64,000 nt of DNA from assembly GCA_030704615.1 (NCBI GenBank), contig CM060731.1:6324001-6388000 (forward strand), read 5' to 3'. This document shows, piece by piece, positions 23,167 to 55,986 of this stretch (position 1 is its first letter; each line of letters begins with the position of its first letter). Below the pieces are notes generated by a model. It searched no databases. It was not told where the DNA came from and saw only the letters and a program-made list of their open reading frames with translations. Made by a program: the position numbers and the translations under genes. Source of the DNA: Takakia lepidozioides. Taxonomy: Eukaryota > Plantae > Bryophyta.

Positions 23167-26100
23167 CCCGGGGGGTGCACTCTTTATAAACTGTGCGTAT
23201 CACGTGCGTTCGTCGCCTAATAAAAAAACCCCCTGTATACGGGTCCTTGGATAATTTATACCCCCTCTGTACATACTTTTTGAAGATTATAAAATCCCCT
23301 CCTGTAAATACACAAAAATTTACAATTTTAGAAAGTACCCCCTTCTGTATGTATATTCTCATTTTCCATCATTAAAAATAACCCTCCAATATGTATATGT
23401 ATGTTTTTATATTATATCGAATTTATTCATTTAAAACATAATAAAATCTAACAAATTAATTAAAAAAAAATTGCCTTTGATAAAGTTGTCAAAGACTTTT
23501 CGGTCATTTGCATCAAGAACATATGTGTTTGATTTGACATTGTACTTTAAACATGCTAACGCGATAATGGAATCCAAATCAACCATCATGTTATTTGTCA
23601 AATCGTACGTATAGACCCCTCCTCGAATTTTTTGGTACCATGCTAACCTAATCTCCATATGAGAAGGACGCTCCAATAAATCAACAGAATCCCTACATTC
23701 TACAAACCGCTTATTGATTTTCTTCCGCATTCTTTGAACCCTGCCCAAATACCAAGTGCCTTTGGTTGCTCCTTTGCAGGTTTTCCCTGGTCTACCTTTC
23801 CTGTTCGTAGTTTGGATCGCAGTCTCCTCATCAACAAAAAATACAGCACAATCCGAACCCAATCCCAAGCTCGTGGCTTTGTTGCTGGTAGTTGGTTTGT
23901 TTTCTCGGCAAAACAACATCGATGCACTTCTTACTCGTGTCAATCTATCCTTGGATAGAGTAGGGTTGCCATTGAGTTGGCTAACCAAAGTGTTTTTGAA
24001 TATGGTCTTCCCGTCTACTTTGACAAATGGAACCACCGCCTTCGATCCATCTTTCTCTTGTTCAAACTCATCAATGACAGCATCCAGAGTATGTCTCAAT
24101 TCACTTTGAACAAGTACCTCTTCCGCATGATCATCCAAAGGTTGGCTCAAAACATCCTCCATTGAATTCGAAGGCCCGCACACCAATTCATCTTCCACGA
24201 CCTCATTTTGAATATGTGTGTCTACATTAAGAGGACAAATAGAATCTATGGCATCGACATCATCACCCTCCTCTTCCATGCTTTTCAATAGCTTGGCCTC
24301 CATTTGTCTCTCAATTGTTCATGGCTCATTCCACCAATCCAAGTTTGTTGCTTTGTTTGGTTTCATCCCAAGTTTATGACATAAAAGTTGCGCTTCTAGA
24401 AATCCAGTTTTCAAAGCCTCCACAATGCAATCATCCGATTGGACAGTAGAAAAGTCGGACAAATCAGCAAGGGGGATATCTGGCTTCTTCTCCAAAGAAG
24501 ACCAAATGTGTTCTTATTTCTTGTGAGCTCTTGAGAACTTGGGTCCTTTTGGATTCACCTCGAACTCGGATATGCGTGTTAATGCTCCCGCACTCTCAAT
24601 CAAATCACACCCGTCATATGTCCTCTCATTCCGTAACATACCTCCCACTTTGCTAAAGAATATTTCACACACATCTGAACCAACAAGGCTCAAAGGAACT
24701 TGCACATGATTAAACTTATCCTTGAACAATTTGATAAGTAGAACCACGTAGTGGCATGAAATTTGTAAATCCAAGTATGCTTCCCTGCTAATGAAGAAGG
24801 ATTTCAAATTATACACCTCGTGGTGGAATAGCCACAACTTCCACAATCTGAAAAAAAAAATTATACTTTCGCAGCAGATTGTACCCTCTCACACAATGAC
24901 ATGTGAGGAGACAAAAAAATGTTGATGTAGCATGAAATGATGTATAGGTAAATTTCAGTACCTTTGGTCCTCTCTCTTCGATGATTCACAGTTGATTGTA
25001 ACTCCCTCAAACAAGTTTGCACCTTCCGAGATGCCAGTCGTTGAGCTGCTGCCCAATTCTGTCGATCTTCTCTTTTGATATCACATTCCCGAAGTCCATG
25101 CTTGTCCACTGAAAATGAATGGTAGACCAATAACACATGATTCAATGTAGCAACCTCATCACCCAACACCAAAGTCCGTGATGCATTGTCCAAGGGATTT
25201 ACCAATTTTTTCCCATTGTGGATGAAGTCCTGATCATGGAGTCCGTATATATCTCCCCCGTTGCACACTCGACCTGTAAACAACCATCCTTCCCAAGGGA
25301 TGCAAAATCTACTTCCAGCCCCATTGGCATAATCTTCTAACATCACTTTTATCCTCCTACTATCTCCGTCTGAAGCATGCCCAATTATAGGCCCAACCAC
25401 GTCCCTCACATATTTGTCCCACAACTGTCTCACCACTTCCCATTGTGATCTCACAAAATTGTTGTCAAATCTATTGCAAGTGAGCTGGATTACCAATACC
25501 AATCGAGGTAACCATACATGTAGAGGATTTGCTATCAACACTCTAGCATAATGGGCAACCACATTGTTTTTGAATGCCTCCACAATATGTTCGTACCCTG
25601 ATTCTCCATCTCCCACTTGCACCACAAAATTTGAAATACATACATGGTTGTCTTGAAGCCCACAAAACCCGAGAAGGGTGTCATCCCTAGCAATCCAACG
25701 TACCAATCGCTTCACAATAGTTTCATCTTCGGCCACCATCACTGGGATGCTTCCCATTGGAATATTTGCATCTTCCATCACATCTCTGTAAATTCGAGCC
25801 ACATGCTGAAATATATCATCCGTTTCTCCGCTCTATACTTCAAACCTTTCCTCAAAGACCGTCTTGTAGTATCAATAGAAGGACCCCCCACATTTGAAGC
25901 CAAAAAATGATGCAATCTTGGACCCCCCTAAAGCTGCACAGTCTCAAACATTGTTTTTGTGCTAGTACCATACATCTTCCCTTGTGGAGACCTGTCAATA
26001 TTCTTGCCCATATCAACAAGAAAATCCCACAAACTTTCTTTTCCTTCAAAATCCCCCCTCCTATGTGCATCAACAATATCACGACAAAATTTGAGAACAT

Positions 26101-27960
26101 CTCCTCTTTCAATTGCCTCAATCCCAGACTCCTTCAAACTCCTACATCGCACAGACAATGATGTCACTTTGGTCCTGGCCTCCCACAATTTGAACCTCAA
26201 CTGCCTCAACTCCTGTCTATTTTTGTAAACTTGTTTGACAATCTCGACATTTCCAAGATATGACAACCTTCTTCCCTTGCCAGTATCTCTCTCCCCTCTA
26301 CATTCCATGGCACCTCTTTCTCTATATACCCTCATTCTGAAGTCATTTTCCAAGGGAATGGAAGAACATGCTGAACATCTCAAGTTTGGAAATGGCTCCC
26401 CATCCAATGACACTCTAAAACAATCCGCATGCCGAAACGTACCAACAACCTTATGCTCTTGATTGTTTAGAGTGATGGTTGCATGTGTCAATGGCTCGAC
26501 ATACCACTTCTTTCATCCCTTCCTATCTTGAAGGAATGGTTTCAGACTTATTCTCTTATGGTTGTACTCCCACCATTCATCCCATAGGCCCCAACACAAA
26601 CTGTCTCTTCCTTTGTTGCATTGGGACCTTTGCTGTAATTCTCAATCCTCAATCAGATCTGCCCGTTGGGCAGCGTCAACACAAGTGTATGGAGTTTGTG
26701 ACGAGGATGCTCTCATTGTTGATGCCACAATTGGATTGTCAAGTGGTGGGGACGGCAAGGTAGGTTGACTGACCAAGAAAGAGCTTAGATCCCGTTGCTT
26801 TACATCTTTGGCAATCATAGGCTTTGGAGGCCTTCCTCTCTTTTTGCACAGTCCTTCACTACTTCCAACCTTCTGACAAATCTCTGCATCGACATGAGTT
26901 TTTCCTTTCACATGCTTTGTCAAAGAAGATTGCAAAGAACCTGTCCTTGGAAACAAGAGTAGCCACTTCGAATCAAGTGGGCACCTAATCATTATAGAAC
27001 CCAACTGCGAATAGTCTCCAATTGTGGCTTCCACAATCTCAAATCTGTTTCCAGGATTGTCTTCACAAAACCGAGCGATTTCCTCTAATGCCTCCTTCAC
27101 CCTGTTCTTCTTTGCATCTAATGCTTCATTTGCATTTACAGGGCTGATGACACATTGTGATGAACCCTTCCCATGACGCCTCTCATAGGCTATGCGATGT
27201 CCCTCACTCCTCAAATGAGATCTCATAACGTTTGCACATGCATCATATGGTTTGTTTTTCCCAGACCGTGCATAAACATCCTCACACTCAACACACCATA
27301 TGTGGAACATTGCTTGTCCTTGTTGATCCTTTGTCATCAGCTCAAACTTGTCACATTGTCCTTCTGCAGAGATTTTCCTTTCAACGACTCTAATCTCTTT
27401 CTGTCATTTTTGAATATCGTTGGATGTAGCCAACATGCTGCACAATCTACCAGATCTCTGCTGAAGTGCATGCTCATGTGCATGGTCTTCATTTCCACCA
27501 TCGCTAGCAAAGGGTGTATCAGGGTCCATCCTCATCTTTTTAGACACTGGTGCCGGGTCCTCGCCTGGTTTGTCCTCATGCAAGATCGTAGAACCACTGG
27601 AAGATTTTTCAATCCTTGGTCCCCATCATTTTGGTCTGAAATCTTAATGTGTACAGTATCCCCTTTCAGAACCATCCTCTCTTCCTGCTTGGCTGAAAGG
27701 ACACTACCCCCCATGGAAAGGAAATGAAATTTTCCTGAGACAAGCTCATCACCTAGAATTTCTCCTCGGATGCATTTGTATGTGACACCTTGCATAGTGA
27801 ACACAGAACCAAGCCTGTTTGGTGATGCATCTCCTCCAACGAGTAGGACTTTTACTTCCAACTCTTCTTCCATGATGAGTTCACCTGCAAAATGCAATGA
27901 AAACATTTCAAATCAGACCTTGATAGACCAATAACAAAGCACCCGGGTTGGAAGGTTCCA
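23167..27960 (-). mobile_element. P-element/THAP9-like DNA transposon with fragmented transposase gene
   Basis: ORF pieces 27532-27906, 26642-27337 (two C2H2-like fingers), 25928-26491, 24861-25802, 24514-24846 and 23431-24303. Catalytic motifs are in P-transposase order: AEDET, HASDGD, DQDFIHNGKK, DRQNWAAAQRL, GSDVCEIFFS. A terminus-like CCCGGGGGGTGCACTC lies at 23167 with ACCCCCT subterminal repeats. There is a frameshift in the A-run at about 24850. Confidence 0.75.
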
Positions 27961-28199: not shown

Positions 28200-28800
28200 T
28201 CTTGGATGATTTTGCACCCACGATCCTCTCCCTACATCAACAGCTACCCCTCCCTCCACACTAACAATGCGTACATCATGCCTCTGCAGCTGCTACAGTG
28301 GCTTCCAGTTGACCAGATACCCATGCAGGTTTCTTGTAGCTATCCTTCCACATGGAATCATAGGTAATCTGGAGCTTGGAATCCGGCCATCTGGAAATTT
28401 AGGGACGACTCTGATAACAGGGAAAAACAGGCTGAAATGTGTTGAAGAAGGTACCTTCATTAGCAGTCCCTTGTTCTATCAATTGCGCTGCTGCCGCTGC
28501 TATTTCCAGTTGACCATCTACTCACATTGTCCCACCACTGACTGGGGTCAGAGAAGTATTCATTCCTTGAAAGCTTCTCTCCATCTCTGTTATCTTTTTT
28601 TAGGTACTGTCATGCTGCCACCTCGGCAGTAACTTGCAAAGTCACTTCAAAGCACCGCAGATCCACCCAACGAGCTAACTTACAGAATTCAATACATATG
28701 CTTCAGGGCTGAGTCTAATGAGAGGAAAAACAGGCTGAAACAGGTCAAACCAGAAGGTGCCCTCAGGCTGAAATGTGTTGAAGAAGGTACCTTCATTAGA
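28200..28800 (-). pseudogene. 5' fragment of a second PPR paralog
   Basis: 28300-28390 is homologous to 30360-30450, the N-terminal region of the neighbouring PPR pseudogene. A direct repeat of about 35 bp (aggctgaaatgtgttgaagaaggtaccttcattag) occurs at about 28430 and 28766. Confidence 0.5.
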
Positions 28801-30458
28801 TCATTTCGTTCGGGCATTTTGATGAACACTTGCTGAGCATCAACACACTCCCACATTTGCAATACATGCTGAGAAGGGCAGTTCCCACTTTGCCATCCGA
28901 CTCAAATCCAGTTTTGATCAACCCTGCATGGAGGCCCTTGCCCTGTTCCAAGGCTATTGGGGTAATACATGCATTCAAGATGCTCATGAAGGTGATTTTC
29001 ATTTGGCTCCATACCTTCTCGTTGCATTTGCTGAAAAAGTTTGAACGCCTCCTCACCATGCCCTTGCTATGTTAATCCTACAATCATCGCATTCCATGAG
29101 ATCACATTTCTCTTAGGCATTTTGTCAAACACTTGACAGGCATGCACCACATTTCCGCACTTGCAATACATGCTCACAAGGGCATTCCCCGCCTGGATAT
29201 CTGACACCAAAGCAGCTTTGATGATGCTTGCATGGAGCAGCTTGCCCTATTCTAGAGCTAGAGGGTTGGTGCAAGCAGTAAGGATGTTAATGAAAGTGGC
29301 CTTGTCAGGCTTCACACCTTCTCCTTGCATGCGTGCAAAGAGTTTGAATGCTTCTGCACCTTGCCCTTGCTGAACTAATCCTGCAATCAAGGCATTCCAT
29401 GAAACTACATTTCTCCGAGGCATCTTATCACACACTTGGAGCGCATTAGCCACACTCCCACACTTGCAATACATGCTCAGATGGGCATTCCCCACTAGAA
29501 TCCAGCAACAATGATGCAGGCCTGGAGCCAATTGCCCTGCTCCAGAGCTACTGGGAGGGAGCACGCATTGAGAATCCCAATAAATGTAACCTCGTTAGGT
29601 TTCACTCATTCTAGTTGCATATGTCGAAAGAGGTCGAATGGTTCTGCACCATGGCATTGCTGAGCTAATCCTGCAATCATTGCATTCCATGAGATCACAT
29701 TCCGTTTGGGCATTTAGTCAAACACTTGGCGTGCATGCACCACACTCCCGCACTTTGCAATACATGCTAATAAGGGTGTTTCCAACAAAAATGTCTGGCT
29801 CGAACTCATTATTGAGAATGTGGGCATGAACCCCCCCTTGCCAATTGCCAAAGCTTTTGTTTTAGCACATCCCTGAAGAAGGCAAGCACAGGTCTGCTCA
29901 TATGTCTCCAAAGCATTCCTACGACACCTATGCTTGGTAAATCTTTCCAACGTAATATTCCACGTGATCAAAGGTCATTGAGGCATTCTGTTGAACACTT
30001 GGTGAGCATCCCTGATGCTCGGCACTTAACATGCATATTGACAAGGGTACGTGTTGAGTAGAAAAACATCTGTCGTGAACCCACTTTGGATAAAGTGAGT
30101 GTGCACCTGCTTTCCAGCTTTCGAGACCTTCCATCTTGATGCACTTAAGCAAGAGACAGACATACATATTTGAATCTGCTAAAATGCCTCCTTGGTTTAG
30201 AATCTGTAGAGCCGTTGTCAGGCTGTCTGCCGCACAAAGTATCTTCACATGCCCAGAAATGTCAGAAGAGGCATTGTGGACTCCCTCTCTTGATCCTCTT
30301 TCAGAAGCTGTGGTCATGGTTGAGGTGCCTGATTTTATCATCTGTGCCGCTGCAATAGCTGCCTTTAGTTTACCATCTACCCATGTAGGTTTCTTGTAGC
30401 TACTGACCCACATGGAATCAAGGTAATCTAGAGCTTGAAGTCCAACCCTCGTGGATGA
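28800..30458 (-). pseudogene. PLS-class PPR pseudogene
   Basis: Fragments in different frames (ALLSMYCKCGSV, RNVVSWNALIAGLVQQGQG.EAF.LF..MQ.EGVKPDK.TFI.IL.AC, MYVCLL.KCIK) with many frameshifts. The 5' side is cut by an LTR insertion. Confidence 0.88.
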
Positions 30459-31509
30459 ACACTTATACGGGATCTGTAGGGTACCCTTAATTTTTGCACA
30501 GACTGAGACCAACAGGAGCCTTAGGGGTGACAGCAGCGCACTGTAGAAGGGGGTTACACAGCCAACACAGCCGTTACAGTCGTCACAGCCAACACAGCCA
30601 ACACAGTCGTCACAGCCGACACAGCCAACACAGCCGTTACAGTCGTCACAGCCCACACAGCCAGCACAGCCGTCACAGTCGTCACAGCCGACACAGCCAA
30701 CACAGCCGTTACAGTCGTCACAGCCGACACAGCCAACATAGCCATCACAGTCGTCACAGCAGACACAGCCGACACAGCCCGACACAGCCACACAGCCAGT
30801 CATAGCCCGACACAGCCAAACACAGTCGCACAGTCAGTCATAGCCCGTCACAGTTTCACACAGCCAGTCACAGCTTGACACAGCTGTCACGATCATAGGG
30901 AACGAAGAGTAGGACAGGGAACGACTGTGGGGAACAACACCTGCGAAGGGAACATGTTAGTTCACAGACGACGGTTAGTAAGGTAAACGGTTAGAACCGC
31001 AGATAGGAAGATAAAGGGAGAAACGGGGAATTGAGGGACATCATTCGGAGGAGGACTTCTTGGTGATAGAGAAGAGGGGATCGGGCAAAGATGAAGAACG
31101 GAAGTGAAGATAGAGAGATGATGAGTAGATGCTTGATATATGCAAGGCTGTAATGATATTGTAGAGTAGATTAGAGACACAATGGCTTCGGCCTGATACC
31201 TGATAAATCATAATCGGATACTTTTACGATCACACTGTGTAGAGAGGTCTGAGTGAAGCTGTGGAATGAATGGATGAGTTGATGGAATCCAATAGATTGA
31301 TAAAGCAAACTGATACTTAATTATCAATGGTAAGATAGTTAACATGAATACCAAAAGGGAAACAAATACGAAACACCCCCATGATACACTAGCTGTAGGT
31401 CATGACTGATTGTTCTGCGCGGGCTGAGTACTTAGAGATTTCCAACTCTTCAATCTTGGAGTTTCCGCCTCGAATAGCGAAGGGATGGGTGAGTAAAAGC
31501 CGCGCGACA
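30459..31509 (+). mobile_element. Solo-type LTR of the family at 60081-61019 (inverted relative to it, lacking the first ~25 bp)
   Basis: It is colinear with the reverse complement of 60081-60994, from acacttatacgggatc to gccgcgcgaca. Homology stops exactly at the terminal CA. Confidence 0.85.
30556..30885 (+). repeat. ACAGCC-based tandem array (9-bp subunits, about 36-bp higher-order unit) inside the LTR
   Basis: acacagcca/acacagccg/ttacagtcg/tcacagccg subunits are repeated over about 330 bp. Confidence 0.95.
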
Positions 31510-34840: not shown

Positions 34841-34883
34841 AAGCGTTGATGGGGACATCAACCTTGGAGCGTAGGGGAGGAAA

Positions 34884-35595
34884 TGCATGCTTAGCCCGGC
34901 TTAGCTAGCTTAGGAATCCGATTGCAAAAACTTGTATTGTACAAAAATTTGTCAGAAAGGAAATGGGTTCCAAATGTTGTGCGTCATATTTTGTTTGGAA
35001 TGGTGATGAATGGTGTGGTTGGCTAATGTGTAGAATGCATGCTAGCTTACAAAAATGGGAGAGGTAAATTGGGTTAATCGTGTGTTTGCGTAGTGCCAAA
35101 ATCAGGTGACTCCCATCCAAGGGGCAAGGAAACTTGCGCCTTCTTTAGGAGTTCACGTGCTAGTGCGCACCTGGCGCGTGCGCATACTATAACTGCGCTA
35201 CCGAGGGGGTTGCTTTGTAGTGCGGGCTAACGCGGAAGCTACGTGCTTCCGTTCATGTACTATAATCGTGTAGCCTCGGGACAAAGTCGTAGTGTGGCTT
35301 CGGCGTGTTCCCGTACCTCAGGCCAGCATTCCAAGGCGGACCCAATTGTAGTGATTGGGGCGCGCGGTTGGTTCAAGGTTATCTTCCTAGTCAAAGAGGG
35401 TTCGAGGTGAACCCTTGCTCAAGGTGATGCCAAAAGCAGCATCATGAGCGGTCGCAAGCAATGTTGTTGCAGTAAGGCGATTCGATCCTCGGGGAGGATC
35501 GTTCCTTGGCCTTGAAATAGGCCAAGAAGAGTGCACTGGGAGGAGTTTGAGAGGCTCCACCCTTGACCGAGACTTGGAGGAAGTCGGTCAAACTA
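34884..35595 (+). mobile_element. 3' LTR of the chromovirus fragment, with a dense hairpin array
   Basis: It begins with TG immediately after the PPT. At least 8 adjacent inverted repeats lie in 35160-35591. Confidence 0.65.
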
Positions 35596-35599
35596 GCTA

Positions 35600-36376
35600 G
35601 TGGAGAGTAGAGTCAAGTGTGGGGTTTGGTTCTTTGCCATGGGACGCCATGCTACGGAAACAAACTCCTTGATGTGGGACGCCACAACTTGGATGTTCGT
35701 TTCCACAAAATGGACAAGCCGATGAGGACATCGACTCCGTGTTGGTAGGGGTGTGTGTCACGGCCCTTTGCCTTGAGGGCAGGGGGTCGGGACACAAGAG
35801 GGGCTGCCCCTGTGGTGGGGGCAGTGGCAGCGATAGGTATGGGGGGCTGAAGCACCCTTGACTGCCCAAGGCACTCAAGGAGGCGGAGGCGCTCACTAGG
35901 TGGAGCCCCGCACACCGGGTTGCGGTGGGGGTGGCTCCACAAGGGGTGGTGGTAGCTTAGCGGGACTGAGTGGGGGTGACATAGGACTCACCCTGGGGCG
36001 GAGACCTCGTGGTGGGAGTCGTGGGGAGTCTTGGGACTCATCACGGTCCATAAGGGCCGTGGTGGGTGGGCCAAGACTCACCGCGACTCATCACCGGGAG
36101 TCGAGGGTGTTCGTGGTGGTTCGCCATACAATGACATGGTTGTTTGTGAAACCCCCGCGGACAGCTACAGAAGTATATATAGGGAGTAGTAACCCCGAGA
36201 ACGGTGCAAACCCATTGGTGACCAAAAACTAGTGAGTAAACGAGCGAGCCGGAAAGCGACCAAAGAGTGGGGAGCTGTTCTGGACTGCCAACTACCAAAG
36301 GGAATTCCGCTGGTTCCAAATCGTTGGAGGGTTCTTTGGGAGATCAAAGGGGGACCGTTATGCCCCGGTGAGCACA
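35600..36376 (+). mobile_element. Putative unrelated LTR fragment truncating the methyltransferase domain
   Basis: GC-rich non-coding segment with a TATA box (gtatatataggg, about 36173). It ends in ...GAGCACA where methyltransferase homology stops. Confidence 0.4.
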
Positions 36377-37109
36377 CACTGGCCATCATCCTGGTCCAAG
36401 AATCGCCCATCAGTGGCACATTCTCCAAGATGTATGCTGGAGATACAGCTTGATGAAGCTGCAAGTGGCGCAAAACCCGCACCATCTCCCAAAACAGACC
36501 CGACCTCGAGTCTCGCAATCCATTGTCATGCCCGGCTGATGAATGCCCTTGGCAGGGCCAACCTGCCACTACCAGATCAATGGAGCCAACCCGGTCTAAA
36601 TCTTGTGCCCTCAGCAACGAGATGTCTGCTGGCAAGGCCTGCTGATATCCACGAACTCCAGCCACCGGCAACAACTCAGGGTACTGTTGCACCAACTGAG
36701 CAACATGGCGTAGGGAGACGCGTCGTGCAGTCTCATCCCTCTCCACATACAAGTAACGCCGTACTCGTACACCTGCCTGTAGAACAACAGCCAATCCGGT
36801 GCTGATCCCGCCAAACAAGTCCATAAGGCAAATGCCTTCATCCAGACACTGCCACACGATCAGTGTGGTGTCCAATGGTGACAACTGAGGTGGTCCTGGT
36901 GCAATCCCCGCACTGTCCTCCTCTCCTGACGGTACCAAAGCCTCTACCCAGGCTTGTTGCACCCGTCGATCAGCAACCCTCTGCAAATCCTTGCTCGTGC
37001 CCCACAATGGAGTCTGAGCAACCATGGCAGGCAACTTCGCCATATCATACATGTCATCCGTTTCTCCTGGAGGTATGTCATCCTCTGAATGAACATTTCC
37101 CTTAAGCAA
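36377..37109 (-). CDS. DNMT3-like C5 cytosine methyltransferase domain within a Gypsy polyprotein, 3'-truncated
   Basis: Motif I LMDLFGGISTG, motif II YLYVERD, motif III ADIS, motif IV IDLVVAGWPCQGHS, the GL.D.RSGLFWEMVRVL segment, and motif VI YILENVP. Motifs VIII-X are absent. Confidence 0.92.
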
Positions 37110-39777
37110 CTCTCCAGGCCAAAGTCACTGCAACTGTGAATGCTGCTAGTGTCGGCATCTTGCCCCGCTGGGCAACCGCAACTCCTCCTATAAACGTCAC
37201 AGGGAGCTGCACACGCCGGCCCTCCCCTGACTGCCATTCAGGCCTATAGGAAGCTGACTCCTCCCAAAAATCCAGGGTGAAGCCCATAGGGTACAACATT
37301 GCCCCACCAACCATGACATCGTACGAGACCGCGTCTGTCACAATGGCCTTGGCTCGCATCACTGAGCCATCTGTAGGGTGATCCGGCCATAGTCTGATAG
37401 CCAACTCACGCCGTGTCATGCCCCAAGCCTGCTCCGATCCTCCCAGAGACGTCTGTATCTGGAAAGGACAAGGCTCCATATCCGCCTCCGTGAGGCCCAA
37501 GCCTGCAATAGCAGCTCTGCCCATCATCAATGGCTGAGCTCCCGAGTCCAACAAGACCTGCAGTGGCCGGTACCTCTTGCCTGCCGGTCCACTCAAACAG
37601 AAAATGTCATCCTAGTTGTCTAACATGACAACTCCAAGTGTAACCATGGCGCGCTCAATGGCTGGCCTAGCTGGCAGCTCTATCAACCTAGCAGCTGCAA
37701 CTTGCCATGGCGCCGTTGTGGCAGTCTTGACCCTCAAATCCGAGGATCCCTCGGGCACTACACCTCCCACTATCTCCGCAAAAGATGAAGTAACCTCCCC
37801 ACTCTCACAGAGTGTAGCTGCCAGCCTGAACACCTCAGCTGGTCTTACCCTCGACGTCGCAATCATGGCAGCCAAGAACAATGGAGCCTGGCACACCGAT
37901 GTGGTCGCTCCTAGCAGCACACTAGCTGTCGTAGCTCTGGCAACACTAGGTAGTGGTGCTACCCGTGTAACTCTCCCCAATGGCATAGTAACCTCCGCCT
38001 CGGTAACAGTCGGGCGAGAACTAGGTGCCATGGATGGCGTCGACATTGTCTCCGCCAATGTGAATGACTGAGGAAGCCTAGCCTGACGGCTTGCCTCCCC
38101 ACGCTGTGGATCCAACTCTACCTCTGCACCTTGTGGCTCAGGAACTCGTGCTGCTCCTCGAGTCACGGCTGCAGTAGACTCCACCTGCACTAGTGGTAGT
38201 GCTGCTCCGCACATGAATCCCATGCCTCCCATATCTCATCCCTCAGGAGCAGGAGGTGGACCATCCGGCCTTGGAGCCGGTACCACCTGAGCTGTAGCCA
38301 TGGCAGCGAGCCTCTGCTTTAGATGCTGAAGCCGGTTGGCCATGCCTTGGTCAACACCCTGACCTCCGCGTCCTTGGCCATGTTGAGCTTGCCCTTGGCC
38401 TGCACCCCGTGCCTGGCCACCTCGTCCTTTTTGGGCTGCTCCCCCTCGCCCCCAGCCACCATTGTTCCCTTGGAACTGGCCTGGGCGCAACTCGGGATAC
38501 AAACCATAACACTGGGCCTCTCCATGTCCGTGCTTGCCACAATGCCCACACTGTGCAGGCTGTGCATGCCGGCCCTTTGCCTCCCTCTGGGCAATCCTTC
38601 TTGACATGGGGTCCTCCACATGTCCAGCACACCACATCCGCCCGTTGTTGGCTAGCAAATGAAGAGAGAGACCCCTGCATCTGAGGTCCTCTCTGCCCTT
38701 CCCTGAGCTTCACTTGAGCCCCCTTGTTGCCTTGAGCACATTGAGGTAGCCACTACCCCGTGGTGTCTCCTTAGCAAATCCCACCATGACCACTGGTTCC
38801 TCCTCCATGTTGAGCTCTATCCGCTCTGCCAGCAAAAACACATTTGCTAAGGTGGGTTGGGCCGCTTGTAAGAGAGTTGCATCCCGCACCCTTCTCCTCA
38901 GCTCCTTGTCCAATATCCCATACCAGAATTGGACTGCCTGAGCTTCCGTAACCCTTTGGGTTATATTTATCAAGCGCCTCACGTGAGTGAAAGCCTCCCT
39001 CAAGCTCTCGGTCGGCTTCCATTGGAACTCTTGCAAGCTCCGCAACTTCTCTGTCCTCACCCCTTGGTAGTTCCCTCTCAACTCTTCGAAGAACTCCACA
39101 ACATGATTGAAGGTAGGCACGGGTACTGGTGCTGGTGCGGTAGTGGCTTGGGTGGACGTCATAGCTACGTTACCACCAGTCCTACTAGTCCCACTGCTGC
39201 TTGCTGAAGCTGCAGGTGCAGCGGCAGGTGTAGCCACTGCCCTCGTGACTCTAGTGCCCCTAGTGATGGAGACATAGTCGGGTGACCAGTACATCCTCCA
39301 CTCCTCGATCTCAACCTCATGCCCCCACCTGAACTCATGGTAATCATCCATAGGCGGCCCCTCAAGGTGCTGAAACAGCCCCTTCCATGCCATGAAAGGC
39401 GTAAATAGTTGTGGATTGCGCATTTGCTGCAAATCACACCAACTATCAAACTCTTGGATAAAATTATCAAACTCTTAGATAAAATCATCCAACTCGATGG
39501 TGCCCACCGCCCCAGAGTACCTTCGTGGCCCCTTGGTAGCTCCATACATCTCCTCTATTGTGTCCCACAACAATGGCAAGGAAACAACTTGCACCGCCGG
39601 TATGAGTCCTCCTGATTCACAATCCGAATCAGAACCTTCCGTAGAAGACACAGGAGCTGAAGGTGGCCTAAATTGCACACCTCGTCTCGTGTACCCACTA
39701 GTATCGCTAGTGCTCGAACCGACACTGTCCCCAGCAACTAGTGGCACCTCCGTGTTCATACTCAACCGGTCATGAAC
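37102..39777 (-). mobile_element. Ty3/Gypsy gag, zinc knuckles and aspartic protease of the methyltransferase-bearing element (decayed)
   Basis: gag (ELDDFIQEFDSWCD, LFQHLEG, LQEFQWKPTESLRE, FWYGILDKELR); knuckles CWTCGGPHVKKDC and CGHCGKHGHGEAQC; protease VLLDSGAQP...YDVMVGG. There is a 21-bp duplication with a stop at about 39475 and several frameshifts. Confidence 0.88.
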
Positions 39778-39820
39778 ATGTCCCTAACCCCCTCTCCACA
39801 AGGTAACCGGGTAGGGAACC

Positions 39821-41106
39821 TGTTGCGGCTTATGGTTTGGAATACTAAGTTCCTAACATAGCCTACACCTGTACCTGCATCCACCGCAAACACAGGAGAA
39901 ACAATGATGGTCTGGTTGGTCATCACCCCAGCCTCACCATCGACAGCATGCTCTAGGACTGGCCGGTGATCAAATCCGGACCAATCACCTATAAAAACAA
40001 GCGCCCACACAAAACTAGCATGGCGTACAGTCAAACATGCAGATATGGAGGGGATCCAAACACAAGAAATCAGAACGACAACTCCCCCACACCAATAACA
40101 ACTCCACGGTGTTGCTCCTGCAAGGACACCCCAGCCCAAACCCGGACTGACTCTTGCCTCCACCTACGGAAAGGTCTTGGCCTAATGAGAGGGTGGAAAC
40201 TACGAGGAAGAGAAGCTAAAGCAATGCCTAACCCCAGCATGCCCTCATCCCAACACTCTTCCTCTCCTCTCTTCCCTCACTTGCATGACCATGGGAATAT
40301 CATGAAGATACTCCTCAAACCGCCCTCCACGAGCTTCAAAATTTGGCCTTCAAGACCACATGCCAGTCCTTAAGTAGTCCACCAGTGCCTCCACGAGTCA
40401 GCAGAGGCCATCCACAGGTCAACACGGGCCACCACAGACCAGCACAGGCCCACACAGCTCACTGGTCACAGCCGTCACAGCCCCACACAGGCCACAGGGC
40501 ATAGCCCACCACAGCCTGTCACAGGCCATCACAGCCCCACAGGCCACAGGGCACAGCCCGCCACAGCCCATCACAGCCCATCACAACACGTCACAGCCCC
40601 ACAGGCCACAGGGCACAGCCTGTCACATCCCGTCACATCCCCTCATAGCCCGTCACAGCCCCACAGGCCACAGGGCATAGCCTGTCACAGCCCGCCACAG
40701 CCCATCACAGCTCGCCACAGCCTGTCACAGCCCCACAGGCCACAGGGCATAGCCTGTCACAGCTCGTCACAGCCCCATAGGCCATTGGGCACATCCTGTC
40801 ACAGCCCCTCACAGCCCCACAGGCCACATGGCACAGCCTGTCACAGCCCTACACAGGTCACAGGGGTCACAGCCCCAAAGGCCACAGCCCCTCATAGGCC
40901 ACATGGCACAGCTTGTCACAGCCCGCCACAGCCTGTCACAACCCCTCATAGCCCGTCACAGCCCCACAGGCCATAGGGCACAGCCCCTCACAGCCCCTCA
41001 CAGCCCCACAGGCCATTGGGCACAGCCTGTCACAGCCCGTTACAGCTCGCCACAACCTGTCACAGCCCCTCATAGCCCGTCACAGCCCCACAGGCCACTC
41101 ATGACA
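39821..41106 (-). mobile_element. Putative 5' LTR of the methyltransferase-bearing Gypsy element
   Basis: The minus strand starts TGTCAT at 41106, exactly at the array edge. A possible end ...GCAACA at 39821 lies just upstream of gag. There is no second LTR copy to confirm. Confidence 0.45.
40420..41100 (+). repeat. CACAGCC-based tandem array (gtcacagccccacaggccacagggcacagcc units)
   Basis: About 680 bp of 8-11 bp subunits in a variable higher-order repeat, with CG>TG/CA variants among units. Confidence 0.95.
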
Positions 41107-42795: not shown

Positions 42796-42849
42796 CTATT
42801 TCCTAGCTAATTTCACACTAGTGGTAAAATAACTTGACAAGTGCTTCGA

Positions 42850-44330
42850 CAAATTTTCATCAATGTATTCACGTAATGCAGCCAACTCCGTCTGGGATAA
42901 GTTATAGATTGGGCCGAATGGTGGTTGGGCTTTTTCTTGTAACTCAATTGCACAGTCATAAGGTCGATGTTCTGACAATATGTCTGCATTTTTCTTCTCG
43001 AAGACATCTTTGAAATCTTGATATTGAGCGGGTAATGTTGAAGTACCTTTGTCTGTTGTGGTCTTGATCGGAGTCGCATAAAGTGCAAATGTCGCCTCCT
43101 TTTTTGTAGCTTTCATGAAAGCTCTAGCTCCAAGGAATATGGGTTGAATACTTTTGATATTTCTACATTTTTGTCTTGCAAAATTTTTTCGCGATCGTCA
43201 GTCGATGTCGGGATTGTGAAGTACGAACCAGGGAAGTCCAAGGATCACAGGATTCGTTGGAGACTGGATGACATTGAAAACAATATGTAATGCTTGATCT
43301 TTAAGCTTCACTTCAAGTGGTCGAGTTTCATGGTCCACATTTCTTGATGATAATGGTCGTCTATCGATGACTTCAACAGGGGCCGAGAGTTTCTTCTTTA
43401 CGAGCGTTAAATTGTTTTGCTTCGCAAAGTTTTTGTCCATAAAACAAGCTGAAGCTCATGAGTCCAAAAGTGCTTCTACAGTGATATCTCGATTTTGCAC
43501 TCTGATTTTTACCGGAACTGTGAAGCAAGGTGCAGGATCTGGAGGTAGAAAGAGACATTTTTTCGATAAGGAATTTGTGGTGTCCAGCCGCATGATCCCT
43601 ACTGTGACTGGACATCTTCGTTTTCCGACCTCCTCGTATTGAACACTTGAGTTGTGCCCCGAGCTTTGAATCTTCTCTTGTTGGGGCAGTTTAATGCTAT
43701 GTGATCTTCTTCTATGCAATAGAGGCATAATCCATTCGAGCGCAGTCTTTGTTTTTCTTGTGGCGTCAATGGCTTGAATCAGACAGCATCAATCTGCATA
43801 GAAGCACTACTGGATGTCTGATGAATCGTTGTATTTGGTGTCATAGTAACAATGACATGATGCGTCGTAGACCATCCAGATCGCTTCTCTTGACGTCTTT
43901 CGAACAAACGATTATCGCATGCAATGACTTGGGTGATGAATTCACTCAGTGTGCTCACGTTTGGCATTGTCAGCAATAAATCTTTTACATCATCTTTTAG
44001 TCTACATCGAAACTGACTAATGAGGCTCTTCTCATTCCAGTCGAGGTCGCACGTAAGTTGTCGAAATTCGGCAGCATAAACGGAAGCAGGACGTGCTCCT
44101 TGTCGAAGATTTTGCATCTTTGTTTCTGCAACTCTCTCTCTATCATTTTCTCCAAACGTTGCAGTGAACTCGGACATGAACGCTTCAAAATTGTATGGGT
44201 CAAAGCATGCTACGGTCCACCCAAAATGGACGTCCCAAGCTCTCTGCGAATGCAGTGCCACATAGAAGGACTGACATGGATGTTGGATATAAGTGCATTT
44301 TGAAAGTTTAGACATGAATCATTGATCTTT
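42850..44330 (-). mobile_element. Tcn1/Tf2-like Gypsy gag, protease and start of RT (decayed)
   Basis: LRQGARPASVYAAEFRQL..DLDWNE..L..QFR..LKDDVKD.L (gag); ALLDS*ASACFMD and ILGLPWF..HNPDID (protease); HRPYDCAIEL....PPFGPIYNLS..EL..LREYIDENL (RT N-terminus). Confidence 0.9.
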
Positions 44331-46405: not shown

Positions 46406-49400
46406 ATGGGGAACAAGAAGAACAAGTATAGGGTAAATGGAGAGGTAAGACCAGGCCCTCAAAAAAGGGCAAAACTGGCTTTGTTGGCTGCAGCCAGGCC
46501 CACCGAGGATACACGCAAACAAACCCACGCTGACCAGAAAAGAATGTATAGGGAGAGACTTCAAGCCCAAAAAGAGGCAGAGATTAATGCGGCTACTACA
46601 ACGTCTGGGCAAGGTTCTGTGGAAGATGCCAGGGTGGGGTTTGGAGAACGAGACAAGAGGAGAATAGCTTTGAAAATGGCCGACTTCTGTTACAAGCAAT
46701 TGAGGGAATGCCCAACACTTCATTCACAAACAGAGGTAATGGAGTTATTTTTGGGTCACCATCTCATTAAACTCAGCTTACCTGCCTATTACTTGCCGCC
46801 TAAGGAGGCCAAGGCGCATGCAGATTTGTTGAAGAACCAGCAGAGCTCCATGCAACTTGTTAAGGGTGTGCAGTCTTTAGATAAGCTTGCGAGTAAACGC
46901 TCATTCTTAACAGCGTCTGTTAGTGGAACCCAGACCACTGCTGTGAGGGCAACGGCACGTATTCTTAATATTCATCATAGCAATATTAGTCGTGCAATTG
47001 TACGACGAAGAGTCATTGATTCAGAAGGTGAGGGTTTGTGGGCTTTGGGTGGGAGAAAGAAAAGGTCTGATCATGTACCAGATGCGACCCGAGCAATCGT
47101 TTTGGCTTGGTGGGTAAATGAGACACGAGTGTCACCCAACAAGAAAGATGTCGTGAGCAGCGCGTATCGAGGAAAGTCTATGATACACAACCTGCTCACT
47201 ATCTTCTTGAGACTCAGGTAAGCGAACCCTCTCTTTACAGTGTTTGTGTGGGCTCTCAGTACTTTACAATCCTTCTACACTTACTACTGTACATAACTGT
47301 ATTGGACTATGTTGGAGTTTGTCAACTGCCATTGTGTTGTTTGGGTTGCCTCGTACATTTTCCCTAGACAAGGTACATCGTCACCTGTAAACCTACCAGT
47401 GGACTGAGATTACTGTACTCAATTGTGGACACTATGTCCAGCTCATGTCCTGAATTGGAGTGTCTTGAAGATGTCCCTCTTGTTCATGGACTGGTACTCA
47501 TTGTAAACAGGCCTGGGATGGACTAGAAGTACGACTCACTAGCATGCACTCCTTATATTATGACTAGATAGGACAAAATAGCATGCACTCCATGTAATTT
47601 GATTTGGAGGGACTAGAAGTCGATGTACATGTACTCCATTAGTACATGCACTCCTTGAAATGTGACTAGAAAAGGACAATGACTAGGACTAGGACCGATT
47701 TGGACATGCATTCCTTGATATGTGACTAGAAAGAAGTAGGACTAGGACTGATTAGGACATGCATTCATTGGTATGTGACTATGCATTCATTGGTATGTGA
47801 CTAGGACTAGGACTAGGACTGGTTAGTACATGCATTCCTTAATATGTGACTAGAAAGGACTCACACTCGGACTGATTAGTACATGTACTACTTCATATGT
47901 GACTAGGAAGGACTAGGTCTAGGACTACTAGGACTGATTAGTACTTGTACAATTTGACATGTGATGAGAAATGACTATGACTAAGACTAGGTCTAGGACT
48001 GGTCTAGGTCTAGTAGTAGGTATTCTTAGTGCACTAAATGGGATTCTCTTTGTGCATGTTGTGGTGGCAATGCAGACTGCTTTCTTTCTTCGCTTCAAAT
48101 CAGCCCATCCCAATGTCAAAGTGGGTCAACGATTGTTTGAGTTGTTGAGGCCATTCTTTGTCAAACGCCTGAAGGATCGTAATGTTTGTTGCTGCAAATA
48201 TCATGTGGAGATGGCGGAGTTGAAGGATGGGTTCAACAACATGCGGACTGCCGAGAGGGGTGTCCACTCTCCATCATCATGTACTTGTGACTGTAATATT
48301 TGTCGACGTGGACCAGTATTAGATGGTGAAGCTGGTTGTCAAGCGAACAAGCACCCCTACAATAGAGTGACTTGGCTTTGGCAAGAAATTGTTTGTCCCA
48401 AAGGGGAATTGGATGAATGGCATCGGCGAGACTGTCTCATGGGAGAGTGCTTGAGGTGTGGCTCAAGTAAGTTATCTATTTGTCCCGTGGAGGCAAATGG
48501 TTGTGATTTGACAGTGCAGTGGAGATGCTATGCAAAAGAGAATGTTGGGGAGAAAGATGGAGCCCCTAGAATGAGACTGAAACTCCAATACCAAACGACT
48601 TCCTCTGTTGAATTCTTGTCGTACTTCAAACCCAAGCTACAGGCTTTTGTTCGTCATAACTTTGTAGCCCGATGGCAAGATGCTCAGTTTAAAGCCAGTT
48701 TGAAATCTTTGCCAGAGAATACAATATTGTCTGTTGTTGACTTTGCTGAAAACTACACTTTTACAGTTCAGAATGAAGTGCAAGAGATGCACTGGCACAG
48801 TTTCCAGATCACTATATTGGTGCACATTACCTACCGGTGGAATCCACACCCTGATGTGAATGATCCCGATTCCAAGGTTTTGAAAGAAATGCACTTTTAC
48901 ATTTCTGATGACAACAAGCATGACACGCTGTTCGTACAACATTGCTTTCGGTTTCATTGGAATTACCTTGCTGAAGCAGGGTTCAGACCTGAATCGCATT
49001 GGGTATGGAGTGACGGTTGTGCTGCTCAGTTTAAAGGTGCTCGTCCTTGGTATTTTGTTAGTAGGTACCCCCACATCACAGGGGGTTGCACAATGTGGTG
49101 GAACTTTTTTGGATCAGGGCACGGGAAAGGTGAGCACGATGGGGCTGGTGCTGTGATCAAGAGGGCTTTACGAGCAGAGCAGTTAAACTCAAATGGGCAA
49201 AATGCTGCTGAGGCAGTAGTTTTTTGGCGCAAGAACCTGTCCACCCGACCTCCTTCTTCGTACTCTAAGATTAGAACAGCAGTGAAAAGACATTTTTGGC
49301 TTGTTCGTACAGAAGATGTTGACCGTACACAAGAGTGGGATTGCAAGACCGTACCTGGAACTCGGTCTTTACATTCCATTCTTGGGAGGAACAAGTCAGA

Positions 49401-49985
49401 CCCAACCAAACTTATGGTTCGAGACTTAGCATGTTTTTGTCCGCATTGTTTGGATCTTGATTGGGACAACTGCATCAGTATTGCTCATGCACAAAAATGG
49501 AAGTTGCAAACCCTGCAACCTACAAATACAACTGCTGTCCGGAGGCAGATTGAAGAAGAAGGGGATGAAGAACAAGAGTTTGGGGGAGATGGGGAGGACT
49601 TGGCCTCCTGCTTGGATGCAGGGGACAATTTTGCCTGCAATGCTGAAGCTGGAAACTCAGAAGGGGTGGACTTCTACTTGCTCTGTTGTGAAAGGCCGGT
49701 TCACGTTGTTATGGAGACATTCACAGATGGGTGGGGAAGTACTTTTGACCCTGGCGAGCATGTGGTTGCAGGGAGATATTACCAGTTGTGTGGAAGAAGA
49801 GATAAGGCTTACAAGTTCCTATCTGACCAGCCTTTGGCATTTCTGTATTCGCATTTGGTAGGGCTATCAAATTTGCTATGCCTCCAGCGACATATCGAGT
49901 CAAAGGCAAGGATGCAGTCTTCACCTTGTCTGCGGATGCATTGGAAGGCATCAATGAAGCTCTGGCAGCAATGGAAGATCGCTAA
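46406..49985 (+). mobile_element. Two-exon DDE-type DNA transposase gene (DFAENY / SDGCAAQFK / HGKGEHDG family; superfamily uncertain, possibly Sola-related), two frameshifts
   Basis: Exon 1 46406-47217 (HTH-like VRATARILNIHHSNISR; 1-nt shift at about 47156). Intron 47218-48075 (gtaagc...tgcag). Exon 2 has Cys clusters (CCCKYH, CLMGECLRCG, CFCPHC) and the catalytic motifs. A shift at about 49860 restores RAIKFAMPP...EDR*. Confidence 0.8.
47400..48015 (+). repeat. GGACT(AG) motif array with a ~55-65 bp higher-order unit in the transposase intron
   Basis: Recurrent catgcattcctt..atatgtgactagaaaggactaggactaggactgattag units. Confidence 0.9.
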
Positions 49986-51606
49986 GATGGCATGTTGCAG
50001 GCCAATCCATGGTTGACGGGCAACTTCCCTTATCGGGATGGGGTCCAATTCTCCCTTGGGTTATGTAACTCAAATATGTAGCAATGTGAATTACAAGTTG
50101 CTTGTGAGCTGAGAGATTGTTTTCGGAATTTGTATGTATGTAGCTTTGTTATTTGGCCGCAGATTATAATTCATAATCTATAATCTATCTTGCAAGCTAT
50201 GGCTGAAGAGGCTGTGGCTGTGGCCAAATTTGTTACTGTTCAATTGAATGTGCCTGGTGACTAGAATTCCCGCACTAGTGCTGTGGTGTATCACTTCACA
50301 AGGCGGGGAATTTCAATTTAATGTGTCTGGTTTTCTTTCTGTGATTGGTTTCTTGTTATTTGGAGTGTGTCTGCCTTCCTCTCTGATCACACAATCTGTT
50401 GTCCTCCCCCTTCTCATACCAACTGGTTGGCAAAGGTGCCTGGCTACGAAGATATGGCAAAACCTTATCATAAACCCTACAACTTGTCATACTTCCTGGT
50501 CCTTTCAAAGTTCCACACCCTCGTTTTGGATAAGAAAGTGGAGAAGATCATAGCTGTAAAAATAAGGCACATGATCCTCAACACGCTGAAGCCGGGCGCC
50601 ATTCTAGTCTGAGTTGCTAACAGCCTTCCAAACACAGTGGGACAATCAAGTGGAACAGCAGCAGACCTGCTATCATACTGTCTTGATTCCCTCTTCAAAG
50701 TTAAGCCATCCTTGCATATTGAACTGCATGCATTAAATCATACACACAAGTAATTTTTGGGCTTGGATGAAGTTGAGAGATACTATCAAACTCTCTGAAG
50801 AATTAGGCAGGCAGCACTACAAATCACATTTATGTGCTCAATTGAGCGAAGGTAGATTGCTTAGAGCTGCCATTACTGAGGTATATTCTGTTTAGTGAGT
50901 TGATTAGTGTCCTGACTTGGGGTACAGAACCAGCTTGTCTCCTGTAGAGAGGGGAATGATGGGAATGTTGTCTGTTGGCCTGGCTTCGGTCCGCCATACC
51001 AGGGATCTTCACCAAGGAGCTAGACTAATTACCATTGAGAGATGGAGACTTGTATTGTTGGTGTTCGATTGCAGTTTTGTAAATGAACTATTAGAGTCAA
51101 GCAAAGGAGGATAGAGGTACGCAACCGGATGTAGCCATACCATCCACCAGTTAGTCAAATTTCAGGCGCAGACTCTGTTAAAGCCACGCATGTTGGAGAA
51201 TTGTAGCACAAGCAGGAAAATCAATGGGCCTTTCAAAGCCATCTTTCTCACATAGAATGAATAACAGTAGACTGCCTGCACGAAGGTATTCTAGCAATTC
51301 CTATCAGAAACAGATAGCAAAATAGAGTGCATTGTTTTCAAAAACCACTGTCATGATATTGCTGCCTTACTCACAAGTTTAACAGCATACCTATCAGCAG
51401 AAAATGAACAAAGAACAGTAATGTGCATGCCCTCAATCCATGTCATGTGTCCATTGTGAGCTACTCGAGAAACCACAAGGGCAAATCCACATCACATGAC
51501 TTGGCTGGGCTAAATGAACAAGTACTGATGAAGAGACGAGACCTGTCCCCACAATGACAGCAACGAGTGGTAAAGTCCTCATAAGTGTACAGTATTCAGC
51601 TTGTAC

Positions 51607-55200: not shown

Positions 55201-55986
55201 ATTCCCATTAAACTAGTTTTTTACAACTCCAGGTTGGTTATGTACGGAGACAGCAACATGAGGGGGCAAGGATGGAGCTACAAACCAACACCCTACCGAC
55301 ATTTCCAGCTTCATGAGAACCAACAACCAACAAAACAACAAACCAACAAACCTAAACCCTACTGACATTTCCAGCTTCATGACAACCATACTACCTAATT
55401 CTGACATGAAATTACCTTTTCAATCAGAGGCCAAGTCTGGATCGTCTATGGTTAACGCAAGTTACCCCTTCAAGAAGTGCAAGTGATCCACATAGATGAC
55501 AAACCTGCTTTCCACACACGTTTTCAAATTCTATATTCCCCCACATGGTGAAGTTTCAGAGAATCAACATTCACATATTGATGATATGCATTGCCATATT
55601 CCTCTTCGATCCCAACGAATGATTGACAGAAGGGACAAGTTCCTTCAATCTAGCGTCATGGTTCAGTTTAGGTAATTAGGTACGCAAGGATGAGCTGGGT
55701 TGTCACGTGCTACAACAACAAGAGACTACTCTACCCCTCTACCCCACATAGGCTATGAGGTACGCAATAAAAGTGAAAATATGAGTAGGGAACACCAGAT
55801 TGCACAAAAGCTAAGGGGGTGCCACACCTGTAATGCTTTTGCAAGATGTGGTGGGAGGTAGCGTGAGGGAGAGCCGCAGGCCACCTGCCATCCCGCAAAT
55901 CAGCTGCACAAACAGCTGAAACTTGTTGAATAGTAGCCCCACAAATGTGACAACATATGCAGGCAAGCAGATGGAATCAGAGGATA

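Follow-up and report, generated by a model that had tools for sequence, protein, structure and literature searches.

The closest described system to the element considered here is KnitGypsy-Dnmt3 of Klebsormidium nitens, whose DNA methyltransferase (DNMT) domain, according to the accessible part of the article by de Mendoza et al. (2018, PMC5890265), shares an open reading frame (ORF) with reverse transcriptase (RT) and RNase H (RH), and whose repeat structure is called DIRS-like in a legend. A land-plant element of related design lies on the minus strand at 36375-41106 of a 64,000-nt stretch of Takakia lepidozioides (GCA_030704615.1, contig CM060731.1, positions 6,324,001 to 6,388,000; this whole stretch is referred to below as the window, and coordinates are counted within it). 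With a probability of roughly 60%, it can be read as the remaining 5′ half of a dead copy, from a bryophyte element of the Ty3/Gypsy type that is present many times and whose DNMT is likely produced in capsid-level amounts, is likely packaged and would act on the element's own new cDNA, methylating it ahead of integration.

The likeness to KnitGypsy-Dnmt3 extends to an intronless, non-permuted DNMT3-type domain within a Gypsy polyprotein, to DIRS-like repeats and to purifying selection, as far as the available text describes them (PMC5890265). The Klebsormidium protein P0233, which judging from organism and architecture should be one of the published KnitGypsy-Dnmt3 copies, has the order protease (PR)-DNMT-RT-RH-integrase (INT) and shares its side of the trees with the window family. 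The window family differs in residing in a land plant, in very many copies, and in that within the window's clade the DNMT ends ORF1, with a conserved stop before RT, instead of sharing one ORF with it. What is new is therefore a land-plant family that shares descent with KnitGypsy-Dnmt3, but whose DNMT is not in the ORF of RT. Retroelement-borne C5 methyltransferases are also described for dinoflagellates in the accessible text of PMC5890265, namely SymbioDIRS-Dnmt3 and SymbioLINE-Dnmt; the former is of the DNMT3 type and performs de novo CG methylation in yeast, and it was for the DIRS case that the authors proposed methylation of cDNA. However, both belong to unrelated retroelement classes, whereas the relatives studied here use a DDE integrase (rve) and 4-bp target duplications and have no tyrosine recombinase. 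The EpiLTR/DAM-LTR elements of Cymbomonas and Euglena are likewise Gypsy-type with a methyltransferase and a chromatin-reader domain, but their DNMT is presented in the accessible part of the preprint as sister to DNMT4 and accompanied by DAM and a chromodomain (bioRxiv 10.64898/2026.05.21.726589), whereas here it is DNMT3-type, the reader is a PHD finger, and no DAM match was obtained. Finally, Chlamydomonas Gypsy-7a_cRei (with REM1 cited in the same source) shares the green lineage and a Gypsy polyprotein with a PHD finger, but its available description, the only basis of the comparison, lists no methyltransferase and gives it ordinary paired long terminal repeats (LTRs) (PMC9940879).

To the initial annotation of the window, such elements were not known to be characterised in embryophytes, and no description of them was found in the open literature, a scope that left subscription journals, Repbase-type libraries, figure 4c of de Mendoza et al. 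and the supplements of the EpiLTR preprint outside; no chlorophyte description was found there either. Later papers write of "streptophytes", one of them citing the 2018 work, and the accessible text of the REXdb survey (PMC6317226) contains neither "methyltransferase" nor "Marchantia". Nevertheless, the family stands less apart than that annotation supposed, since a single broad green-plant lineage takes in both it and the published Klebsormidium element.

The order of parts first proposed for the minus strand (gag, two zinc knuckles, protease, C5 methyltransferase) is borne out by alignment with a Marchantia protein, P0001: its residues 1-758 match 39558-37189 with 47% identity (gag to protease), and residues 783-1033 match 37121-36375 with 60% identity (linker and methyltransferase; tblastn, minus strand in both cases). 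The methyltransferase ORF, for which a Pfam check had been suggested, matches PF00145 at E 6.5e-13. The protease (E 0.005) and the first zinc knuckle (E 0.05) both lie under Pfam's cut-offs, and gag has no Pfam match, its identification being by homology to P0001. Motifs I, IV and VI, described earlier as intact, are located at 36821-36795, 36563-36549 and 36431-36417, in non-permuted order; the protease active-site motif occupies 37554-37537, and the knuckles 38629-38591 and 38550-38509. The features of the copy and of the element that abuts it are listed below, where clade A is the closest group among the relatives and TRF stands for Tandem Repeats Finder.

41099-41106, minus strand: 5′ terminus with a TG start; its first 8 bases equal the 5′ end of clade-A loci L033, L017, L007 and L038.
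40374-41098, minus strand: tandem array of 10-bp units within the 5′ terminal region (TRF 40465-41088, period 10, 61 copies).
39760-40373, minus strand: presumed 5′ leader, which separates the array from the start of gag homology and has many host contigs over it.
38750-39759, minus strand: gag, matched to P0001 by tblastn from 39558 onwards and interrupted by a duplication of 21 bp that carries a stop at 39477 (TRF 39444-39495).
38591-38629, minus strand: zinc knuckle 1 (CCHC), out of the gag frame in this copy (Pfam zf-CCHC, E 0.051).
38509-38550, minus strand: zinc knuckle 2 (CCHC-like), from sequence and alignment to P0001.
37189-37611, minus strand: aspartic protease, with a stop just upstream at 37614 (Pfam Asp_protease_2, E 0.005).
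36867-37188, minus strand: linker joining protease and DNMT; near 37120 the frame changes from -2 to -3, where P0001 is continuous.
36375-36866, minus strand: N-terminal half of a DNMT3-type C5 methyltransferase with motifs I, IV (catalytic Cys) and VI, motifs VIII-X missing (PF00145, E 6.5e-13; best PDB sequence matches DNMT3A).
34884-36374, plus strand: likely 3′ LTR of an unrelated chromodomain Gypsy element, abutting the cut DNMT (purine tract 34873-34883, then TG; CA at 36373-36374; high contig depth).
33995-34840, plus strand: end of the integrase, SH3 and chromodomain of this second, unrelated element (Pfam SH3_Tf2-1, E 2.9e-14; Chromo, E 2.2e-10).

The boundary at 41106 matches the 5′ end of the family, and the contig depth of host runs drops beyond ~41175. 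What had been taken for an LTR-like repeat is the array of 10-bp units inside this family terminus; it likely belongs to the 5′ "A" repeat described below, and the stretch 40374-41098 has no second copy accompanying the element in the window. The LTR at 34884-36374 also has no partner within the window.

The copy is dead and consists of the 5′ half only, in agreement with the first description. It is broken by four stops, which fall in the gag/PR frame at 39477, 38712, 38238 and 37614, and by three frame breaks, and its homology ends abruptly at 36375, after motif VI, directly against the TG..CA-bounded LTR of the opposite strand. Searches of the window with nine relatives as queries find neither the remainder of the DNMT nor any RT or RNase H; a weak match (E 5e-4) to the 3′ half was traced to the integrase of the neighbouring element. 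The frameshift noted before the methyltransferase does exist near 37120, but it results from decay and not from design: relatives run continuously in one frame, other host copies also carry indels at the linker, and a programmed PR-DNMT frameshift was accordingly rejected. Point decay killed the copy, and it was cut at 36375 by, or beside, the chromodomain element. Where other copies in run X1 differ from the window over 34.5-42.5 kb, T>C (107) and A>G (95) changes outnumber C>T (58) and G>A (61), counts that include neighbouring repeats; the window thus has T or A more often than other host copies, as expected from the decay of methylated cytosines.

The family is represented in the host by many divergent copies, as the contigs of run X1 show: 103,503 of them fall on 34.5-42.5 kb and 11,009 on 36250-37350, which are not copy numbers (runs X1-X4 being a single sample, possibly the window's own source). 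Beyond 36375, 19 contigs of X1 and 10 of X2 continue with other sequence; inspected by eye, it agrees with the continuation of the domain in relatives. Run X12, for which an RNA origin is only a guess, yielded 85 short contigs, for the most part under 95% alike. A protein search returned 29 homologues with joined PR-DNMT, 18 of them from Marchantia, two from Calypogeia and one from Sphagnum, and among the hits of a metagenome scan 346 were confirmed as relatives and 80 retained (under L numbers). With a DNMT profile, 544 clusters at 50% identity were collected (E up to 1e-30); among the 150 clusters listed, 13 have the PR-DNMT or DNMT-RT joint, 96 have RH-DNMT or DNMT-INT, and 41 are not assignable. 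The named bearers of PR-DNMT include Marchantia, Calypogeia, Sphagnum, Klebsormidium nitens and Closterium, and those of RH-DNMT-INT are the chlorophytes Haematococcus, Tetradesmus, Hariotina and Scenedesmus; no vascular plant occurs among the named matches listed, most matches carrying no name.

Two non-exhaustive exact-pattern scans were directed outside eukaryotes. A viral collection gave 16 loci with a partial domain only (best E 5e-13), and the only locus from prokaryote genomes is L097, where a complete element sits on a contig of 9 kb assigned to a cyanobacterial genome bin, which it likely contaminates as a eukaryotic member of the family. On these scans, a bacterial or phage donor was set aside.

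The methyltransferase is DNMT3-type by profile and by the predicted fold of an intact relative, and it is not permuted, as the initial annotation had maintained. Already the half-domain of the window finds DNMT3A first among PDB entries (31 bits, against 26 for a DRM-type enzyme and 25 for M.HhaI), and with the family profile the distance grows (DNMT3A 84 bits, DRM-type 41, M.HhaI 36); the type was ranked against PDB entries, and the trees include no host DNMT3, DRM, MET1 or CMT. The model of the L045 domain has a mean confidence score (pLDDT) of 89.9, and its predicted fold is matched best by DNMT3A in Foldseek (E 1.6e-19). In VIA-align, the model comes closest to DNMT3B (Z 28.1, root-mean-square deviation 2.8, 276 aligned), followed by M.MpeI (25.1), DNMT2 (21-22), DNMT1 (19.2), ZMET2 (18.3) and MET1 (18.0). 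Motifs I-X stand in non-permuted order in relatives; by crude patterns, and with truncated rows included, of 116 domain rows, 114 have motif IV (W[PE]CQ), 113 motif VI and 96 motif VIII.

In intact relatives, as distinct from the host copies, the DNMT is under purifying selection. The ratio of nonsynonymous to synonymous divergence (dN/dS) between the intact loci L045 and L046 is 0.12 for the DNMT, 0.09 for the protease and 0.08 for RT, as compared with 0.60 for the linker and 0.59 for the tail; between L045 and L097 it is 0.07 for the DNMT, with dS near saturation. The dN/dS comparison proposed at the outset thus gives purifying selection in relatives, whereas values of 0.43-0.94 were obtained for fifteen pairs of dead copies in clade A, as decay after insertion would predict. 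The latter values, together with the broken state of the window copy and its half domain, are what one would also see if a single dead element had captured a fragment of a host DNMT3 that then decayed neutrally. Such a one-off event has a negligible chance of being the explanation and is in fact already refuted by the occurrence of the same PR-DNMT junction in several genera. Thousands of host contigs lie on either side of this junction, the window differs from Sphagnum-like copies at a nonsynonymous proportion (pN) of 0.20 against saturated synonymous sites (pS 0.77-0.80), and the domain is unlike the host genes of streptophytes. The latter carry a C-terminal DUF3444 in their DNMT3 (PMC6453930, available text), whereas no Pfam match to DUF3444 was obtained in the 29 homologues or in 14 locus ORFs, and the element DNMT is intronless and lies inside the Gypsy coding region after the protease, in the window as in P0233. 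The window protease itself is 39% identical to that of P0233 over 127 amino acids.

The part of the element absent from the window can be read from its relatives, whose full order is gag-PR-DNMT-RT-RH-INT-PHD. In L045, a 1369-amino-acid ORF with protease and DNMT is followed by one TAG and a 1047-amino-acid ORF with RT, RH, integrase and PHD. The Ty3/Gypsy order PR-RT-RH-INT with a DDE integrase is seen in L045, L056 and P0233; rve and H2C2 integrase domains are present in the scanned locus ORFs, where no tyrosine recombinase (the DIRS feature) was matched, and the chromodomain typical of chromoviruses gave no match in the 14 ORFs scanned, with PHD standing there instead. The initial annotation anticipated full copies with paired LTRs and all domains in one frame. 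The order of domains holds, although in the window's clade an in-frame stop separates DNMT from RT, and in place of two complete LTRs the relatives have split A..B-A-B repeats. Thus, L033 consists of A (1679-2017), ORFs, a purine tract, B, A and B, L056 is built likewise, and pieces matching A-ORFs-B-A-B are also found in L007, L038, L055 and L051. Six loci, one being of the RH-DNMT-INT type, have a short palindrome at the B|A joint, and TG..CA ends with 4-bp target duplications are seen in L033 and L017, both of the clade-A loci displayed with both ends. The window retains only the 5′ terminus of this structure; judging from its clade, the copy should once have had the 3′ half and the stop.

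The stop between DNMT and RT bears on how the enzyme would be dosed. Among the 44 clade-A loci, all 31 that cover the place have an in-frame stop there (21 TAG, 10 TAA), followed by CAA in 31 of 31, which counts as one event, the loci being near-copies. The window's clade (99/97) comprises 33 rows, and in not one of them does RT share the open frame of the DNMT; the frame is maintained across the stop in all loci examined. In L045 and L046 the context is TAG-CAG-TTA and in L097 TAG-CAA-TCA, all fitting CAR-YYA, the plant-virus readthrough consensus after UAG given in the accessible text of PMC2194720. The in-frame UAG with CAR-YYA likens the element to stop-codon readthrough in tobacco mosaic virus, murine leukemia virus and SIRE1; the stop studied here differs from those in coming after protease and methyltransferase, and its readthrough is a prediction from sequence. 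No paper joining CARYYA with a retrotransposon was found in the literature search. RNA structure after the stop gave z values from -0.8 to -3.0 in six loci against simple shuffles, with folds differing between groups.

It is probable that RT-RH-INT-PHD is reached by readthrough of this stop. If pol were instead expressed by splicing or reinitiation, the element and its enzyme would be unchanged, and this alternative, although rather unlikely, draws on several facts. Clade A, to which the window is closest, has the context TAG-CAA-CCC, which misses CAR-YYA by one base, and an ATG comes directly after it, so reinitiation is possible there; the Marchantia gene models P0015, P0016 and P0022 splice across the stop site; and for Tca2, as far as the source was accessible, local context can fail to direct readthrough, so that a gag-pol stop need not be passed by means of a local signal. 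On the other hand, neither L045 nor L097 has an ATG between the stop and the conserved block upstream of RT, which is kept as protein (13 synonymous and 2 nonsynonymous codon changes between the two), whereas 10 of the 17 codons after the stop differ in amino acid. CAR-YYA is thus retained with both of its degenerate positions changed and the neighbouring codons diverged, and the preserved frame also speaks for readthrough.

Placed before such a stop, the methyltransferase would be made at the Gag level. In the proposed scheme, ORF1 would yield Gag-PR-DNMT in bulk, occasional readthrough would supply RT-RH-INT-PHD, the protease would free the methyltransferase inside the particle, and the enzyme would then mark new cDNA, so that copies integrate pre-methylated. 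Packaging of the DNMT and cDNA as its substrate have about an even chance of being correct. One may also suppose that the enzyme acts during or after integration on the insertion site or flanking chromatin, guided by the integrase-linked PHD finger. The co-occurrence of DNMT and C-terminal PHD in both architectures is in line with this, as is the position of the DNMT next to integrase in the chlorophyte-type group, and insertion-site effects were raised by de Mendoza et al. in the accessible text (PMC5890265). Nonetheless, action at integration seems unlikely for the window's clade, in which the DNMT ends ORF1, upstream of the stop and far from integrase, a position that fits a particle component better.

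The two architectures separate in all trees: PR-DNMT and RH-DNMT-INT groups are split with support of 99 in a 122-row DNMT tree (built without 19 proteins that were fragmentary or near-duplicate, and without rows of fewer than 180 profile positions), 99/97 in a 73-row DNMT tree and 99 in a 49-row RT-RH tree. In the 73-row tree, the window, whose row fills only 47-48% of the tree columns, is joined by Marchantia, Calypogeia and Sphagnum in a group of 11 rows (100/100), itself part of a larger group of 33 (99/97). Klebsormidium P0233 is on the side of the window family in both the RT-RH (99) and the DNMT (99/97) trees; in the former, which has no outside RT root, midpoint rooting makes it sister to the remaining PR-DNMT side. 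The element would represent an old green-plant lineage common to Klebsormidium and Closterium and not a fresh capture in the host; the simplest account would be that the domain was captured once, long ago, and changed its site afterwards.

Further members of the lineage were noted. The sister group with a DNMT3-type domain between RNase H and integrase includes intact ORFs with PHD (L047, L050, L053, L063, L067, L069, L076, P0205, P0156, P0165 and P0286). Clade B, a second, distant PR-DNMT-RT family (~40% identical) with split repeats, occurs in a subset of L048-L080 (e.g., L056, L055 and L072); a conserved stop was sought in it and rejected, as stops occur at varying places and in some copies only. 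The gene model P0380 from Cymbomonas tetramitiformis has the order PR-DNMT-INT, its DNMT standing on a long branch with the chlorophyte-type side.

A number of points, including the clade-A context, the spliced Marchantia models and Tca2 mentioned above, weigh against methylation of cDNA by a capsid-level enzyme. The stop and the 3′ half are not visible in the window itself. Clade B, Klebsormidium P0233 and Closterium P0379/P0419 read from DNMT into RT with no conserved stop, so expression at the Gag level is not needed by all members. The deep PR-DNMT branches are not settled in the trees, with long-branch warnings on the deep joins, and no tree contains a host plant DNMT3. The Klebsormidium domain did not methylate yeast DNA, a result that the authors call inconclusive since DNMT3B failed too (PMC5890265, available text). 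The inactivity in yeast would suit a domain kept for DNA or RNA binding or for RNA methylation, with no methylation of DNA; this is quite improbable in view of the retained catalytic motifs, as counted above by crude patterns, and of a modelled fold that is nearest to DNMT3 and above DNMT2 (Z 28 vs 21-22).

A wider scenario can be put forward only tentatively, its odds being somewhat short of even. An ancient PHD-tipped split-repeat Gypsy lineage might have kept an active DNMT3 since before the chlorophyte-streptophyte split and moved it between two pol sites, and the bryophyte branch might have put it before a read-through stop, such that particles carry many methyltransferases and copies integrate methylated.

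The rest of the window contains other repeats and genes. Just upstream of the DNMT element, at 42796-44318 on the minus strand, lies a fragment of another Gypsy element (Retrotrans_gag, E 6.9e-10). Two copies of a ~0.9-kb repeat, 85% identical (30459-31509 and 60081-60994), have a GACAGCTGT joint followed by a 9-bp-unit array resembling the 5′ array of the element, and are possibly ends of a related or non-autonomous family. A 2.9-kb direct duplication with 95% identity (55986-58891 and 61088-64000) contains coiled-coil-like ORFs of 589 and 719 amino acids, and long ORF clusters resembling coding regions of DNA transposons occupy 23434-27912 and 47968-50013. Two repeat-bearing genes on opposite strands, 64% alike, are found at 2-1537 and ~28794-30189; from their repeat pattern, we take them to be pentatricopeptide repeat (PPR)-like. 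The site-1 protease (SBT6.1) gene at 12495-19369, minus strand, has an exon that shares 86% identity with Sphagnum; the figure is 84% for Ceratodon and for Physcomitrium, 82-83% for liverworts and 70-72% for named vascular plants. In an exon tree, in which no hornwort is named among the rows, it falls within a bryophyte group (98/96), outside the Ceratodon-Physcomitrium and Marchantia-Riccia subgroups.

Cytosine methylation is the main weapon of the host against retrotransposons, and the puzzle of why some of these elements encode that very enzyme has stood since 2018. Earlier examples came only from algae that are hard to handle, whereas Marchantia offers genetics and methylomes. Many of the gene models labelled "DNA methylase" in Marchantia, Calypogeia and Sphagnum belong to transposons, and the conserved stop provides a concrete, testable prediction on the dose of the enzyme and its place of action. 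If the proposed reading is true, the Marchantia copies with a complete Gag-PR-DNMT frame would make self-methylation of a transposon testable in a land plant.

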